From contig VMGC01000004.1 in assembly GCA_007376385.1 (NCBI GenBank), positions 64,001 to 128,000 on the forward strand: 64,000 bases of DNA, read 5' to 3'. Below are positions 7,791 through 15,887 of this stretch, piece after piece. The stretch is from Parcubacteria group bacterium Gr01-1014_8 (GTDB taxonomy: Bacteria; Patescibacteriota; Minisyncoccia; Phycocordibacterales; UBA2100). Numbering within the stretch: position 1 is the stretch's first letter; each line of letters opens with the position of its first letter. A program made the translations under genes and the position numbers. The notes below the pieces were generated by a model that searched no databases, had not been told where the DNA came from, and saw only the letters and a program-made list of their open reading frames with translations.

Positions 7791-8744
7791 ATGCCAAGTT
7801 CACCGAAAGTCACGCCGAAAGATTTCTTCCTCTGGGCAGGAGCGATGGTTGCCCTCTATGGGGGAGTCATTTCCTTCGTCACCCTATTATTTCAATACAT
7901 TGATTACGCGTATCCTGATCCTCTTTCCAACTATTCATACAGCGACCCGTTCTCAGGCAGCATGCGGTTTGCTATGGCGACTCTCATTGTGCTCGTGCCC
8001 GTAGCTCTCGTCATCATGCGCTTCATACGCAAAGACATCGCGCGCATTCCTGAAAAAAATGAACTGTGGGTACGACGATGGGCGCTCGTACTCACCGTCT
8101 TTATCGCTGGGGCTGCAGTAGTGGGGGACTCGATCGCGCTCATTAATTCGTTCCTGGGCGGTGATCTTACGACTCCATTTCTTCTCAAGGTTGTTGCGCT
8201 TCTTCTCGTTGCCGGTGCCGCATTCTTGCATTTTCTCGCTGACTTGCGTGGATACTGGACGGCAAATCGGGGACGGGCACAGATGGTCGGTTACGGAGCA
8301 GGAACCGTTGTACTTCTTACCGTCGTCGCAGGATTCTTCATCATGGGAACGCCGGGCGATGTGCGATTGATGCGTTATGACTCGCAAAAAGTGACTGACC
8401 TCCAGAACATACAATGGCAAGTGGTGAACTATTGGCAACAGAAACAAATGCTCCCGACAGCATTATCGCAACTTGAGGATCCTATCTCTGGTTGGAAGGC
8501 ACCGCTCGATCCAGAGGACAAGAGAGAGTATACGTATGAGAAAACAGGCGATATGTCTTTCAAACTCTGCGCGGAGTTCAACTTCGAAGTCACCGAAGAA
8601 ATGAATGGGGTGAAGGTTGCATATCCGGAATACGGCGTTAGTACGGACAATTGGCTGCATGGGCAGGGTGAGCACTGCTTTGACCGAACTATCGATCCGG
8701 ACCTGTATCCAGTCTATCCCAAAGGCGTTCCCATCCGCGAGTAA
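7791..8744 (+). CDS. Membrane protein, about 4 TM helices plus a C-terminal soluble domain; function unknown
   Basis: Track ORF 7785..8744 begins with TTG. The first ATG is at 7791 (MPSSPK...). Hydrophobic segments lie in the N-terminal 190 aa. Confidence 0.45.
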   Translation: MPSSPKVTPKDFFLWAGAMVALYGGVISFVTLLFQYIDYAYPDPLSNYSYSDPFSGSMRFAMATLIVLVPVALVIMRFIRKDIARIPEKNELWVRRWALVLTVFIAGAAVVGDSIALINSFLGGDLTTPFLLKVVALLLVAGAAFLHFLADLRGYWTANRGRAQMVGYGAGTVVLLTVVAGFFIMGTPGDVRLMRYDSQKVTDLQNIQWQVVNYWQQKQMLPTALSQLEDPISGWKAPLDPEDKREYTYEKTGDMSFKLCAEFNFEVTEEMNGVKVAYPEYGVSTDNWLHGQGEHCFDRTIDPDLYPVYPKGVPIRE

Positions 8745-8747
8745 TTT

Positions 8748-9002
8748 CTACGAGTCTGACTCGTAATGATCGAGTCGCCAGCGTTGGTAGGCGAGTAGCG
8801 CCCACTCTGAGCCTAGGATGAGCGACGAGATGGTTGCCGACCACAGATCGAGTGTCGCGTAGGTCGCAGCAAACACAAATAGTCCGCCAGCAGAAGCAAG
8901 TGAGGTGAGTAGTGCTGGCTTTTGTGCTCGATCAAATATCGTCGGTAAGATCGTCAAAATAAATCCCCACTGAATGATCGAGATAGCCCAATCTTGCCAC
9001 AT
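8748..9002 (-). CDS. Small 2-TM membrane protein
   Basis: 84 aa with two long hydrophobic stretches. It fills the gap between flanking genes. Confidence 0.35.
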   Translation of the reverse strand: MWQDWAISIIQWGFILTILPTIFDRAQKPALLTSLASAGGLFVFAATYATLDLWSATISSLILGSEWALLAYQRWRLDHYESDS

Positions 9003-9043
9003 GATTGTTAGTATATCGTATATAGTATATCGTATCTCGTATT

Positions 9044-9127
9044 ATGAAGAGATACGATCATCGCAAAATTGAGAAAAAATGGGCCTCCTTCGCTAAGGCT
9101 ACGGACGGGCAAACAGCAGAAGTATGA
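9044..9127 (+). other. 27-codon upstream ORF that mimics the LeuS N-terminus; its TGA overlaps the leuS ATG (ATGA)
   Basis: Translates as MKRYDHRKIEKKWASFAKATDGQTAEV*. Its first 13 residues parallel LeuS MKSYDHKRIERKW. The stop at 9125-9127 overlaps the leuS start at 9124-9126. Confidence 0.3.
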
Positions 9128-12081
9128 AAAGTTACGATCATAAACGTATAGAACGAAAGTGGCAGGCACGCTGGAAGAAATCGAAGCTGTACAAGACTGC
9201 CGATACGGTAAAAGGTAAGAAAAATTATTATTTGCTAACTGAATTTCCGTATCCGTCTGGCAATTTGCACGTCGGACACTGGTACGCTTTTTCTGTACCG
9301 GACATTTTAGCAAGAGCGCTCCGCATGCAAGGCAAGAATGTGATGTATCCGTTCGGCTTTGATGCATTCGGATTGCCTGCGGAAAACGCAGCCATAAAAA
9401 ATAAGTTGAATCCTCGAAAATGGACCCTCGGCAACATCAAGTACATGAAAAAACAGATAACCTCGATGGGTGCATCGTTTGATTGGTCTCGAGAACTCGC
9501 TACGTGCGATCCTGAATACTACAAGTGGACGCAGTGGCAGTTTTTGCAATTTTTTAAGGCAGGACTCGCATATCGAAAAGAGACAGCAGTCAATTGGTGC
9601 CCTTCGTGCAAGACAGTGCTTGCGAACGAGCAGGTAGTGGATGGAAAATGCGAACGATGCGGAACGGAAGTGATTCAGAAGCAAATGCTTCAATGGAACT
9701 TAAAAATCACCGACTATGCGGACCGTCTTATTGACGATTTGAGCACGCTGGATTGGCCTGAACAGATAAAGGAATCGCAGAAAAATTGGATAGGACGTTC
9801 TGAAGGCGCCGAGATAGATTTCAGGCTCACAGGAAATGTAGGCGATGACTCACGGTATCTGATCCTCCACGGCAGAGAAGGGAAGCCCACGAGCGTCTTT
9901 ATTCCATGGCTCAAAGAAGAACTGGAAAAAGCTGGACATGAAGTGGAAGTGCCACAGCTTCCCAACACGAATGAACCGAATGCATATGAACAGGCAGAAT
10001 ACATCCTCAAGAACTGCACCGTAGATGAAAAAACAGTTGTGATAGGCCACTCGATAGGAGGAGTTACAGCGCTGCGTCTCTTGGAGAAGGGCGCAAAGGT
10101 TAGGCGCGTTATATTGGTCGCGACACCGTACTCAGGAAGATTTTTGGATGGTAAGAAACGGCCGAGCGTCACAGATTCCGTGAAGAAGGGGTTCGATTTC
10201 GAGACGATACGGAACAATACAAAGAGCATCATTGTTATGCCGGATGTAAAAGATGACAGAGTTCCATTTTCCGACGCCGAGAGCTATGCGCAGAAACTGG
10301 CCGGGATGCTGGTCCATGGCAGGGGAGAGGAGAAGCATTTTATGGGTAAGATAGAGCCGGATGTATTGATGTGCCTTTGCCCCACTATCCGCGTTTTTAC
10401 GACGCGAGCCGACACGCTTTTCGGGGCGACCTACATGGTCTTGTCCCCGGAACATCCATGGGTACGGTTAGCGATAGATGATGATCACAAAGTTTTAGAA
10501 AATAAGGATGAGGTAAAGGAATACGTCACAGCGGCGAATAAAAAAACTGAGCTGGAACGCCTCACGGAACAAAAAGAAAAGACCGGGGTGAGGCTGAAAG
10601 GCGTTGAGGGAGTAAACCCCGCTACGGGCGAGAAGATACCGATATTCGTAGCAGACTACGTGCTTGCGCACTACGGGACAGGGGCCATCATGGCGGTCCC
10701 GGCGCACGATGAGCGCGACTTTGCATTTGCCAAGAAATTTGAGCTGCCGATACGAGATGTGATCTCTACTGGAAAGATGGAATCCGGCGTGTTCGCAGGA
10801 GAAGGAGTGTTGGTGAATTCCGGCGCGTTCAATGGGCTAAAAAGTATCGAGGCTAAGAGCACGCTCACCGATAAATTTGGCCGCAGTAAAATCACGTACA
10901 AACTCCGCGATTGGATAGTTTCGCGCCAGCGTTACTGGGGAGTTCCAATACCCATCGTCCACTGCGAAAGGTGTGGAGACGTCGCTATTCCTGATCCACA
11001 GCTTCCCGTTACATTGCCGGAAATCAAAGATTATTTGCCAACCGGAGACGGAAAATCGCCTCTCGCAAAAGCCAAAAAGTGGGTCAAAGTGAAATGTCCG
11101 CAGTGCAAAGGGACGGCAGAAAGAGAAACAGATACTCTCGATACGTTCGTCGATTCATCCTGGTACTTTTTGCGGTACGCGGACACAATAAACAAAAAAA
11201 AGTTTGCCGATATGAAAAAGATGGATGCATGGATGCCGGTAGATCTCTATTCCGGAGGAGCAGAACACACAACGATGCACCTCCTCTATTCTCGCTTCTG
11301 GCAGAAGGCGCTCTACGATCTAAAGCTCGTTAAGGACAGCGAGCCGTACACGCGAAGGATGAATCGTTCCATCATTCTTGGTCCAGACGGGCAAAAGATG
11401 TCGAAATCCCGAGGCAACGTGATAGACCCGGATGCTGTTGTCGCGAAACTCGGCGCAGACACCGTGCGTATGTACCTTGCCTTCATAGGTCCGTATAATG
11501 AGGTTTCGAACTATCCGTGGAATCCGGATGGTGTGGTAGGTATTCGCCGTTTTCTCGAGCGTGTTTGGCGCCTCCGCGACCGACTTACGATATCGGTCAA
11601 GAAAAGTGACGGACATACGATATCGAACATCGAACGGATGCTGCATGTAACGATTAAAAAGGTGGGGGACGATATCACTGCCCTGAAATTCAATACTGCC
11701 ATCGCGCAGATGATGTCGTTTATGAACGAAGCAGAGAGTAAAGGGATCACAAAGGCGCAATACGAGACACTGCTTCGGCTTCTTGCCCCGTTCGCTCCTC
11801 ATATTGCAGACGAACTTTGGAGCATGATGGGACACAAGAAGTCGGTTCATATTGAAAAATGGCCCGCATTCGATCCGCATAAACTCGCGTCGTCGTCGTT
11901 TACAATTGCGGTACAAGTGAATGGCAAGACACGAACTCAAATCACCATACCTGCTGCAGTGAAGGAAGACGCCGTGAAGGAACAGGCTGAAACAGCTGCA
12001 GGAAAATGGTTGGAGGGAAAGGCTATAAAAAAGATCATCTACGTGCCCGGCCGCATCGTCAACATCGTCGCGGGCGAATAG
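9124..12081 (+). CDS. leuS: Leucyl-tRNA synthetase carrying an inserted alpha/beta serine-hydrolase domain
   Basis: HIGH-type 'PYPSGNLHVGH', KMSKS 'QKMSKS', CP1 editing-domain landmarks 'VFTTRADT', 'GTGAIMAVPAHDERDFAFA' and 'RDWIVSRQRYWG'. Residues about 243-419 form an RBBP9/YdeN-like hydrolase (LILHG...VVIGHSIGG...). Total 985 aa. Confidence 0.9.
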   Translation: MKSYDHKRIERKWQARWKKSKLYKTADTVKGKKNYYLLTEFPYPSGNLHVGHWYAFSVPDILARALRMQGKNVMYPFGFDAFGLPAENAAIKNKLNPRKWTLGNIKYMKKQITSMGASFDWSRELATCDPEYYKWTQWQFLQFFKAGLAYRKETAVNWCPSCKTVLANEQVVDGKCERCGTEVIQKQMLQWNLKITDYADRLIDDLSTLDWPEQIKESQKNWIGRSEGAEIDFRLTGNVGDDSRYLILHGREGKPTSVFIPWLKEELEKAGHEVEVPQLPNTNEPNAYEQAEYILKNCTVDEKTVVIGHSIGGVTALRLLEKGAKVRRVILVATPYSGRFLDGKKRPSVTDSVKKGFDFETIRNNTKSIIVMPDVKDDRVPFSDAESYAQKLAGMLVHGRGEEKHFMGKIEPDVLMCLCPTIRVFTTRADTLFGATYMVLSPEHPWVRLAIDDDHKVLENKDEVKEYVTAANKKTELERLTEQKEKTGVRLKGVEGVNPATGEKIPIFVADYVLAHYGTGAIMAVPAHDERDFAFAKKFELPIRDVISTGKMESGVFAGEGVLVNSGAFNGLKSIEAKSTLTDKFGRSKITYKLRDWIVSRQRYWGVPIPIVHCERCGDVAIPDPQLPVTLPEIKDYLPTGDGKSPLAKAKKWVKVKCPQCKGTAERETDTLDTFVDSSWYFLRYADTINKKKFADMKKMDAWMPVDLYSGGAEHTTMHLLYSRFWQKALYDLKLVKDSEPYTRRMNRSIILGPDGQKMSKSRGNVIDPDAVVAKLGADTVRMYLAFIGPYNEVSNYPWNPDGVVGIRRFLERVWRLRDRLTISVKKSDGHTISNIERMLHVTIKKVGDDITALKFNTAIAQMMSFMNEAESKGITKAQYETLLRLLAPFAPHIADELWSMMGHKKSVHIEKWPAFDPHKLASSSFTIAVQVNGKTRTQITIPAAVKEDAVKEQAETAAGKWLEGKAIKKIIYVPGRIVNIVAGE

Positions 12082-14636: not shown

Positions 14637-15887
14637 ATGTTATTTCAAAGAGAGGGTCAGCCGAGTGGAACTGTACGCTTCGGAACGGCATTCGCCATCG
14701 CACTTGTGGTGGGTGCGCTCGGCTTCACCGGGGGTATTTTTGCAGGTAATCGTACCTATGCGAATGGACCCCTGCTCGGCGACTCTCCGCCAGAAGGGGT
14801 CGACATGACCCCCGTATGGAAAGCGTGGCGCATCATTGATGAAAAATTCGTTCCCGCAGCCGTTGCTACCACGAGCATAGCTGCAGCATCAACAACCGAT
14901 GCGGAGCAAAGACGAGTCTGGGGCATGATCGAAGGACTGGCCAATTCATTGGACGATCCCTACACATATTTCATGCCGCCCGCAGAGCAAAAGCAATTTT
15001 CAGAGGACATGACTGGCGCATTCGAAGGAGTAGGGATGGAAATAGCCGTTCGAGACGAAGTGCTCGTTATCGTCTCGCCCCTTAAAGGCACGCCTGCTGA
15101 ACGGGCAGGACTTCGAGCAGGAGACAAGATATTGAAAATAGACGGCGATGACACGCGTGGCGTAGATATTACGTCTGCAGTCCAGCGCATCCGCGGACCA
15201 AAGGGAAGTACCGTTACTTTCTCTATATTTAGAGATGGATGGTCCGAACCCAAGGATGTACAAGTCGTACGCGACGTCATCAACGTCCCGATCGTCACGA
15301 CGGAAATAAAAGAGGGAGTCTTCGTTATTGAGGTGGCAAGCTTTACGGCAAATTCGCCAGGACTATTTCGAAATGCTCTTCGTGAATTTGTGGATTCAGG
15401 CACGTCGAGACTCATCATTGACCTTCGTGGAAATCCGGGAGGATATCTGGATGCCGCCGTGGACATGGCAAGTTGGTTCCTTCCTTCTGGAAAAATCGTG
15501 GTTGTGGAAGATTATGCTGGGCACGAGACCAATATAACGCATCGCTCGCGCGGCTATAACGTATTCAACGATAATTTGCGCATGGTCATTCTCGTTGATA
15601 AAGGCTCTGCATCCGCCTCTGAAATTCTCGCACTCGCGCTTAATAGCCACGGCAAGGCTCGGCTCATCGGTTCTCCTACCTTCGGCAAAGGTTCAGTCCA
15701 GGAGCTGATAGACATAACGCCTGATACGGGTTTGAAGCTCACGGTCGCGAGGTGGCTCGGGCCTAACGGAGAGCATATACCGCACTCTGGCATCATTCCC
15801 GACATTCAAGTTGAAAGAACTGAAGACGATATTAAAAGCGACAAGGACCCGCAGATTGATGCGGCTATCAAGGCAGTCAATGAGTAG
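14637..15887 (+). CDS. C-terminal processing peptidase (S41, Ctp/Prc family) with PDZ domain
   Basis: N-terminal TM anchor, PDZ 'GLRAGDKILKIDGDD', and catalytic region 'LVDKGSASASEI...TFGKGSVQ'. Confidence 0.8.
   Translation: MLFQREGQPSGTVRFGTAFAIALVVGALGFTGGIFAGNRTYANGPLLGDSPPEGVDMTPVWKAWRIIDEKFVPAAVATTSIAAASTTDAEQRRVWGMIEGLANSLDDPYTYFMPPAEQKQFSEDMTGAFEGVGMEIAVRDEVLVIVSPLKGTPAERAGLRAGDKILKIDGDDTRGVDITSAVQRIRGPKGSTVTFSIFRDGWSEPKDVQVVRDVINVPIVTTEIKEGVFVIEVASFTANSPGLFRNALREFVDSGTSRLIIDLRGNPGGYLDAAVDMASWFLPSGKIVVVEDYAGHETNITHRSRGYNVFNDNLRMVILVDKGSASASEILALALNSHGKARLIGSPTFGKGSVQELIDITPDTGLKLTVARWLGPNGEHIPHSGIIPDIQVERTEDDIKSDKDPQIDAAIKAVNE

Follow-up and report, generated by a model that had tools for sequence, protein, structure and literature searches.

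Why should an essential gene be preceded by a short open reading frame that looks like a second version of its own beginning? This question is raised by the leucyl-tRNA synthetase (LeuRS) gene, leuS, of Parcubacteria group bacterium Gr01-1014_8, which is Kaiserbacteria-like and belongs to the candidate phyla radiation (CPR), in a 64-kb stretch of DNA that we call the window. Upstream of the leuS ATG (S2), another ATG (S1) opens an upstream open reading frame (uORF) whose first codons parallel those of leuS. The first-pass annotation of this DNA considered several origins for it: a duplicated 5' end, the scar of an insertion or excision event or a target duplication, and a translationally coupled leader peptide. 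From the comparison of many leuS loci we conclude that the layout, in which two copies of the leuS start are separated by a short palindromic element (X), forms a leader that is conserved, has apparently not been described before and is not an isolated scar.

The beginning of leuS is present twice

The basic geometry is as first annotated: the ATG at 9044 opens MKRYDHRKIEKKWASFAKATDGQTAEV*, its TGA (9125-9127) overlaps the leuS ATG (9124-9126), and the two starts lie 80 nt apart. The short upstream repeat that had been recorded as 'TATATCGTA x2' is in full a 14-nt tandem repeat, TAGTATATCGTAT(A/C), at 9009-9036. The parallel between the uORF and the LeuRS N-terminus is clear at the protein level, with nine identities among 13 residues, the other four being K/R/S exchanges (BLOSUM62 score 61). 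The nucleotide identity, by contrast, had been put too high, at about 30 of 39 positions; we count 26 of 39, with seven of the 13 differences at third codon positions.

Taken alone, that identity lies within chance, since the best unrelated 39-mers of the window reach 25/39 and 22/39, and one may therefore ask whether the likeness is fortuitous or an assembly artefact. That it barely exceeds the background maximum is the only point in favour of this explanation, which we regard as ruled out for all practical purposes. An independent ENA MEGAHIT assembly matches the region over 8958 nt with 0 mismatches, dozens of homologous cases exist (see below), and the protein score is far beyond those of the controls, the upstream regions of a set of 53 leuS loci that were mostly non-CPR and were not selected for the layout. 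In 51 of 52 other loci the best upstream BLOSUM62 scores are at most 29, the sole exception being locus L012 (score 62), which is a second true case.

The layout recurs at many leuS loci

L012 belongs to a Patescibacterium and has another gene context, with metG upstream: the stop codon of metG overlaps a first ATG, from which MKYNPQKIEKKW is read, and 94 nt of spacer rich in hairpins separate this from leuS, which starts MKYNPNKIERKW. We scanned metagenomes for two coding 'IExKW' motifs 60-120 nt apart, the second followed by CA, a pattern that demands UGG in both copies. It was found at no fewer than 120 loci (at least 120), and among the matches listed about 66 were distinct, real leuS loci with an upstream copy of the N-terminus, mostly from CPR bacteria. 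In every one of them the upstream copy ends exactly at the Trp codon, and no similarity upstream of the ATG was seen in 25 aligned loci, L168 excepted, where the whole unit is repeated. Three of four Kaiserbacteria LeuRS picked only for an IERKW N-terminus also carry the layout (P0072, P0071 and P0034). Alignment with relatives, the check that the first-pass annotation had proposed, thus found the similarity to be conserved.

Several individual loci deserve mention here. In L168 (666-826) a 77-nt unit, consisting of the hairpin and the first 12 leuS codons, forms a perfect tandem repeat (X-copy-X-copy), which reflects either duplication in the very recent past or the assembly of this 1.1-kb contig. 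A GC-richer group of leuS genes (L118, L162, L185 and L191; MAEKYPFQTIEPKW..., DMFPYPSGAGLHVGHP) has the same order of copy, spacer and copy, with unrelated spacers, and because of this group the layout may reach beyond the CPR. Finally, a tatD-like gene in L198 (322-431) begins MLIDSHCHLN, continues with a GC-rich hairpin (CCCCGAAGGG...GGGGGCAGG) and restarts through an ATGA overlap as MIIDTHAHIN, with 80 nt between its starts. Hence leuS is not the only gene with the layout, and this tatD-like module suggests that a start duplication plus a hairpin may be a general device in CPR genomes with few Shine-Dalgarno sites.

The upstream copy lies at the ancestral start

The closest relatives of the window's LeuRS are 69-70% identical to it and share part or all of the gene order, namely ornithine/arginine decarboxylase, DUF5671, a small membrane gene on the minus strand, leuS and cysS (the short contig L004 shows part of it). 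Syntenic small genes of 82-87 aa are called in L002, L003 and L209, and lie 40-42 nt from the first leuS-type start. In the window this gap is 41 nt and leads to the uORF ATG, whereas in L002 and L003 it is 40-42 nt and leads to the leuS ATG; L209 has the same synteny and likewise a uORF. The intergenic sequence is also conserved between the window and L003, including the tandem repeat, which in L003 reads TAGTATACCGTATA TAGTATATGGTATT and lies within the divergent promoter region. The gap and the conserved intergenic sequence therefore identify the uORF ATG as the positional orthologue of the relatives' leuS ATG. Compared with its uORF-less syntenic relatives the window has 80 extra nucleotides, made up of the 41-nt X and the second copy of codons 1-13, and the residues of copy 1 come closer to the family consensus M[KR]xYDH[KR]KIEKKW than those of the actual leuS N-terminus. 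Judged by position and consensus, the uORF is the retained ancestral leuS start, separated by X from a second full copy of that start. The idea of a duplicated 5' end is hence upheld, the upstream copy being orthologous in position to the leuS start of syntenic relatives.

The idea of a scar survives in part. A 41-nt palindromic element does lie between the copies, but the arrangement is neither a fresh scar nor a target-site duplication, because the copies are only 67% identical, their boundaries run from ATG to Trp in about 66 loci, and in the Kaiserbacteria-type clade orthologous copies of different genomes are closer to each other than the two copies of one genome. A target-site duplication of a transposon was also rejected in view of the whole set, where identity between copies ranges from 39% to 100% and the boundaries are everywhere the ATG and the Trp codon; X-like hairpin insertions elsewhere have no obvious flanking duplication in the flanks displayed. 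A simple tandem duplication of 80 nt does not fit either, as 9083-9123 is unrelated both to 9163-9203 (leuS codons 14-27) and to the intergenic 9003-9043. Nor does a recent patch from a foreign allele by illegitimate recombination, given the identical junction in about 66 loci and copies that are orthologous between genomes. The template and variable repeats of a diversity-generating retroelement were rejected as well, the 13 differences involving all four bases in both directions.

Age of the layout and selection on the first copy

We compared nine Kaiserbacteria-type genomes, including the window. Copy 1 always reads IEKKW in them and copy 2 IE[RS]KW, and between genomes copy 1 averages 0.72 identity and copy 2 averages 0.75, versus 0.67 between the two copies of one genome. 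In a neighbour-joining tree of LeuRS, the uORF-less P0003, P0004 and P0006 nest inside uORF-bearing lineages, and the layout is therefore ancestral in the Kaiserbacteria-type clade and was lost at least twice. Such losses could have occurred by recombination between the copies, which would leave a normal gene at the S1 position.

The way in which copy 1 varies is that of a coding sequence. In eight of the genomes (L085 left out), its Tyr-Asp-His codons show a diversity of 0/0.08/0.37 at codon positions 1/2/3 and its Ile, Glu and Lys codons one of 0/0/0.54, while codons that are variable in the family vary at all three positions. Among the 66 loci, copy 1 has Tyr or Phe at -9 in 61 and one of [PHFY] at -7 in 60, neither of which was preset by the search pattern, and its variable positions equal those of copy 2 in only 18-27 of the 66. 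Copy 1 appears, from these patterns of variation, to be under purifying selection like that on a real LeuRS N-terminus.

The palindromic element between the copies

In 46 of 49 cases the spacer hairpin begins at the last G of the Trp codon or within one base of it. The commonest spacer, type 1, which includes that of the window, can be written UGG CCCNCC UUCGC UAAA GC UWCGG ANGGG CAAGCAGAA, followed by 2-5 nt and AUG. Divergent members (L105, L113, L122, L196, L121 and L178) have a hairpin closed by GCCC/GGGC with a wholly different interior and z scores of -2 to -5, and type 2 spacers (L012, L091, L095, L112, L129 and L163) have two or three stems, with z scores of -5 to -11. By eye, the four segments of type 2 (L012 1401-1494, and the other five loci) appear able to form either of two mutually exclusive sets of pairs, A:B with C:D or A:D with B:C (UCCCGAUU / AAUCGAGGA / UCCUCGAUU / AAUCGGGA); such a spacer resembles an attenuator-like switch whose first segment comes immediately behind the leader's Trp codon. 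When diverse spacers were aligned with MAFFT and folded as a consensus, only four invariant base pairs were retained.

A covariance model (R1) built from 16 type-1 spacers has a single significant match in the window, at 9077-9122 (60.5 bits, E=5e-18), and a search for the 41-mer elsewhere found nothing. In related contigs, R1 also matches elsewhere, in frame within coding regions, in the LeuRS genes of L183, L108 and L088 and twice in the TatD-like gene of L106; it has no match in the non-CPR control loci. These X-like hairpins encode inserts such as SSFAKASEDKQ, PSFVKASAGQG and PPSHKAMEGQAPTD, and the LeuRS proteins P0100, P0040, P0087 and P0047 contain similar 'GPSSAKATKGKK' inserts. Moreover, hairpins are nested inside hairpins in L085, L205 and L201, and these nested copies, together with the scattered sites, suggest that X may have proliferated. 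By its matches, X is a member of a dispersed family of tiny palindromic elements in CPR genes. In Rfam 15 there was no relevant match at E<=10 for 8600-9500, and none at gathering score in 16 related loci.

Start codons, frames and stops

Copy 2 has its own start codon in all 53 loci in which it is out of frame with copy 1, and is without one in only eight loci (Table 1), in which the copies are spaced by a multiple of three nucleotides and no stop interrupts the copy-1 frame within X. It follows that ordinary decoding always suffices for making LeuRS. At the eight fused loci LeuRS should, as predicted from the reading frame, carry an N-terminal extension with the duplicated segment; L105, which has the restart form, differs from its close relative L130, which has the fused form, by small indels in the element only.

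The upstream start is mostly kept too, S1 retaining its start codon in about 94% of the out-of-frame cases (hand count). The ATGA overlap is kept in 9/9 Kaiserbacteria-type genomes, and the two nested inserts inside X in this clade, which add 30 nt in L205 and 33 nt in L085, preserve the frame (L201, outside the clade, also has one). Over all, the leader stops within -13 to +14 nt of S2 in about 36 of 52 loci, a number that is partly an effect of base composition. Selection for ATGA specifically, across all clades, was rejected, an A at +4 of copy 2 looking about equally common, in a hand tally, with or without the creation of a stop. A -1 frameshift that would fuse the uORF to leuS was rejected too, as the -1 frame meets a TAA at 9094-9096 in the hairpin loop.

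A leader from which leuS may be restarted

How, then, might such an arrangement work? On balance, if only just, we favour the reading in which the ancestral start, X and the restarted leuS form an old, conserved leader, so that ribosomes would load at S1, cross X and restart on leuS. Loading would take place at the promoter-proximal S1, either on a leaderless message or by stop-start coupling; after reading the 13 decoy codons and then X, the ribosomes would stop at the UGA within AUGA and begin again at the leuS AUG. Translation of leuS would thereby be coupled to that of the leader, and a structured RNA element could precede the gene without a 5' untranslated region.

S1 is proposed as the loading site because the genome is largely devoid of Shine-Dalgarno sites and has -10-like boxes just before many ATGs. 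Genes of the window almost never have a Shine-Dalgarno site, and many have a -10-like hexamer (TAGAAT, TATACT, TATAAA) that ends 6-10 nt before the ATG, for example those starting at 14637, 17304, 61090, 58550 and 14573. This suggests that leaderless or very short-leader mRNAs may be widespread in the genome of the window. In the wider set, TANNNT occurs 4-9 nt upstream of S1 in 21 of 48 cases, versus 21% in shuffled sequences, and upstream of S2 in one of 48, and S2 looks internal, probably lacking a separate promoter. L012 differs in that its S1 is coupled to the stop of metG. Neither start of the window is preceded by a Shine-Dalgarno site, nor 9124 by a GGAGG-type site; the tails of X are rich in purines, and in some relatives AGGA or GGAGG stands just before S2. 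The coupled leader peptide of the first-pass annotation thus fits in architecture and conservation (ATGA in nine of nine genomes, no Shine-Dalgarno site, a copy-2 start wherever the frames differ), while its translation, and any control that it exerts, are predicted from sequence.

Several observations weigh against this reading. In the window itself the interval 4-9 nt before S1 contains no TANNNT, with the closest TAGTAT ending 15 nt upstream, and the hairpin is weak (-8.8 kcal/mol, z=+0.8), with the weakest z among the folded 41-nt spacers. The core type-1 hairpins are in general no more stable than shuffled sequence, and although 92% of the pairs hold in the core alignment, versus 21-52% when it is slid, there is almost no covariation, as the sequence itself is conserved. 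Tight coupling is not universal, the uORF stop lying 40-70 nt before the leuS ATG in many cases with long spacers. Stops near S2 result in part from the A/T-rich copy 2 being read out of frame, and copy 2 has an A at +4 in about 60-65% of loci whether or not a TGA results (hand tally of second codons). Furthermore, it is from sequence that we infer translation of the uORF and reinitiation, and the conservation of copy 1 at the amino-acid level is not explained by this model. This conservation may possibly stem from selection via viable deletion revertants, or from a role of the nascent peptide.

Alternative explanations

The last point leads to a different reading, which we consider possible and hold with clearly less conviction, namely that the decoy N-terminus is itself functional: the translated mimic together with X could be a new kind of translational control for an essential synthetase, for instance a gate on a leaderless transcript that depends on the nascent peptide or on LeuRS, or copy 1 could be kept as a working start in reserve, under selection because recombination can remove the element. 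Consistent with this, the leader keeps the residues of the enzyme (Tyr, Asp/Asn, His/Pro, Ile-Glu, Lys-Trp) across CPR lineages with synonymous change only. A comparable, minority share of our belief goes to the opposite view, in which X is a mini-element resembling the Rickettsia palindromic elements (RPEs) that landed after leuS codon 13, where a duplication of the N-terminus rescued the gene; leuS would then be translated independently from S2, where the tail of X, being rich in purines, would serve as a weak ribosome-binding site, and the uORF would be functionless. The in-frame hairpins in other coding regions, the nested hairpins, the tatD-like gene of L198, the AGGA or GGAGG that often stands just before S2, the clean loss of the layout in some relatives and the decay of copy 1 in a few loci (L198, L167 and L197) are all as this view would have it. 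What it does not account for is that copy 1 is intact in most lineages, as the -9 and -7 positions and the restriction of change at conserved codons to third positions indicate, that the S1 start codon is so rarely lost, and that overlap and frame are kept across the clade. In addition, the 64-kb window holds a single X, and the identical junction in all loci is contrary to repeated, independent rescues.

X could, in a third alternative, be an autoregulatory operator bound by LeuRS or another translation factor, as a mimic of tRNA-Leu or of something else, the bound X blocking ribosomes from S1 or occluding S2 and so feeding back on the level of LeuRS. This would be a specific version of the reading that we favour, and it has some appeal, because LeuRS lineages that have diverged greatly still share the core sequence of X, with its internal loop UUC/UWC and its tail CAAGCAGAA, which suggests a sequence-specific partner, and because E. 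coli thrS offers a precedent. We nevertheless judge it improbable, since the same element family lies inside unrelated coding regions and is thus not leuS-specific, the spacers of other lineages at this position (types 2 and 3) are of quite another kind, and neither the window region nor the 16 related loci match an Rfam family; 40 loci held only one tRNA-Met, with no tRNA-Leu to compare. Control by leucine attenuation was rejected, as the 27-aa peptide has no Leu and Leu is inconsistent among homologous leaders; 8600-9400 has no terminator-like site on the plus strand, and the type-1 spacer is a single hairpin without a U tract. A T-box or other known cis-regulatory RNA was rejected for want of an Rfam 15 match in 8600-9500 or in the 16 related loci. 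The remaining candidate would make copy 1 part of the enzyme: ribosomes from S1 could leave at the UGG of codon 13 and land on the copy-2 UGG 80 nt further on, as in phage T4 gene 60, so that LeuRS would bear the N-terminus of copy 1 and the selection on that copy would be accounted for. The take-off and landing codons do match (UGG at 9080-9082 and 9160-9162, although UGG was preset by the metagenome search pattern), the GC-rich hairpin starts at the take-off codon (G9082), and copy 1 is conserved like a genuine LeuRS N-terminus. Programmed bypassing was rejected, and we give it very little credence, because copy 2 has a start of its own in each of the 53 loci with differing frames, the only loci without one being those where LeuRS can be made by simple read-through. 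Moreover, no stop follows the take-off codon, the next codon being GCC or CCC, several spacers contain a TGG, and a gap of 80-133 nt would exceed known cases.

Comparison with known systems

Full-text literature searches found no description of a leuS layout with copy, X and copy, and we therefore compared it with known systems that share some of its parts. Classic translational coupling by overlapping stop and start (AUGA) works with 70S reinitiation. The polycysteine leaderless uORFs of mycobacteria are short ORFs that act as attenuators of a gene further down their own transcript (bioRxiv 10.1101/834739). The leuS leader resembles both in being a short ORF at or near the 5' end whose stop overlaps the main start, with no apparent Shine-Dalgarno site and with output of the main gene expected to depend on translation of the leader, but it copies the first 13 codons of the main gene, has no run of sensor codons (no Leu), and is filled for the rest of its length by X. 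Attenuation leader peptides and T-box leaders are similar in that they too precede an amino-acid-related gene, and differ in that the window has no Leu codons in the leader, no pair of terminator and antiterminator, and no Rfam match to the T-box.

The RPEs, reportedly described by Ogata and colleagues in 2000, are said to be selfish palindromic repeats that lie in frame within protein-coding genes. X resembles them as a small palindrome found at several sites and in frame in ORFs, with 'PSFAKASEGKQ'-type inserts in LeuRS and a TatD-like protein. It is shorter, however (about 33-41 nt versus about 100-150 nt), is unrelated in sequence, occurs once in the window, and is flanked at leuS by a conserved duplication of the gene start, which is not known from RPEs. 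Another likeness is to the bypass element of T4 gene 60 and to mitochondrial 'byps', where a GC-rich hairpin insert directly follows one particular sense codon near the beginning of an essential gene; the ribosome skips such inserts, whereas leuS restarts with a second full N-terminus, which has its own ATG when needed. The gene 60 insert is reported to belong to a mobile cassette (bioRxiv 10.1101/2022.08.31.505936). The operator of thrS provides the last comparison, having like X a conserved hairpin directly upstream of the start of an aminoacyl-tRNA synthetase gene. In E. coli, ThrRS represses its own translation through this tRNA-like operator hairpin, which adjoins the start codon. X, in contrast, lies inside a putative leader ORF, belongs to a family that is present in other genes too, and has no demonstrated likeness to tRNA. 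None of the systems compared joins a selected copy of a gene's N-terminus, a palindromic element and a restarted gene.

What makes the arrangement of interest is that translation of an essential gene, in a large and poorly understood radiation, appears to run through a conserved leader. If S1 is indeed the launch pad for leuS, genomes with leaderless or stop-start initiation could still place a structured RNA before a gene. The selection is unusual too, as an upstream peptide seems to be selected like the enzyme's own N-terminus, which is measurable and testable, and the comparison has brought to light what looks like a family of very small palindromes located in frame within genes of CPR bacteria. 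For annotation, gene callers will mis-start or split such leuS genes, and in-frame variants would extend the LeuRS N-terminus with a duplicated segment.

Features of the locus

The coordinates of the features in the window, and of related features in other loci, are collected in Table 1.

Table 1. Features at and around the duplicated leuS start, with corresponding features of related loci
Feature	Position or locus	Strand	Basis
Divergent small membrane-protein gene, 84 aa	8748..9002	-	ORF list; start 41 nt from uORF ATG
14-nt tandem repeat TAGTATATCGTAT(A/C) x2, with -10-like TAGTAT boxes; shared divergent promoter region	9009..9036	+	Repeat search; same repeat in L003
Perfect 10-bp inverted repeat ATCGTATCTC / GAGATACGAT, uORF ATG in its 10-nt loop	9029..9058 (arms 9029-9038, 9049-9058)	+	Repeat search
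27-codon leader ORF (uORF) MKRYDHRKIEKKWASFAKATDGQTAEV*	9044..9127	+	ATG orthologous in position to leuS ATG of L002, L003, L004
Copy 1, ancestral first 13 leuS codons up to Trp codon	9044..9082	+	Fit to family consensus; orthologues in 8 related genomes
Element X, 41 nt, GC-rich, palindromic	9083..9123	+	Hairpin 9082-9110, purine-rich tail AAACAGCAGAAGT 9111-9123; covariance model
Copy 2, first 13 codons of leuS, MKSYDHKRIERKW	9124..9162	+	ORF list and alignment of copies
ATGA stop/start overlap of uORF and leuS	9124..9127	+	Sequence; same in all 9 Kaiserbacteria-type cases
leuS, 985-aa LeuRS with inserted alpha/beta-hydrolase domain	9124..12081	+	Identical to P0001 leucyl-tRNA synthetase; Pfam families
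In-frame X-like hairpins	L183 5313-5357 (LeuRS near codon 30, 'GPSAAKAKEGKK'); L108 806-850; L088 2502-2543
In-frame X-like hairpins in TatD-like gene	L106 9414-9460 and 9854-9908		R1 matches
Fused-frame loci without copy-2 start	L102, L107, L110, L130, L139, L146, L153, L174

The inverted repeat around the uORF ATG reappears in the fold of 9036-9135, whose 5' stem is a 7-bp version of the same pairing. By eye, weaker inverted repeats seem to surround the leuS ATG of L002, L003 and L004, apparently with one compensatory change in L003. Within LeuRS itself, the inserted alpha/beta-hydrolase domain (PF06821 Ser_hydrolase, PF12695) lies at about aa 230-400 (roughly 9810-10330), beside the usual domains, and many relatives are about 1125-1150 aa long and have a NUDIX domain (PF00293) in addition.

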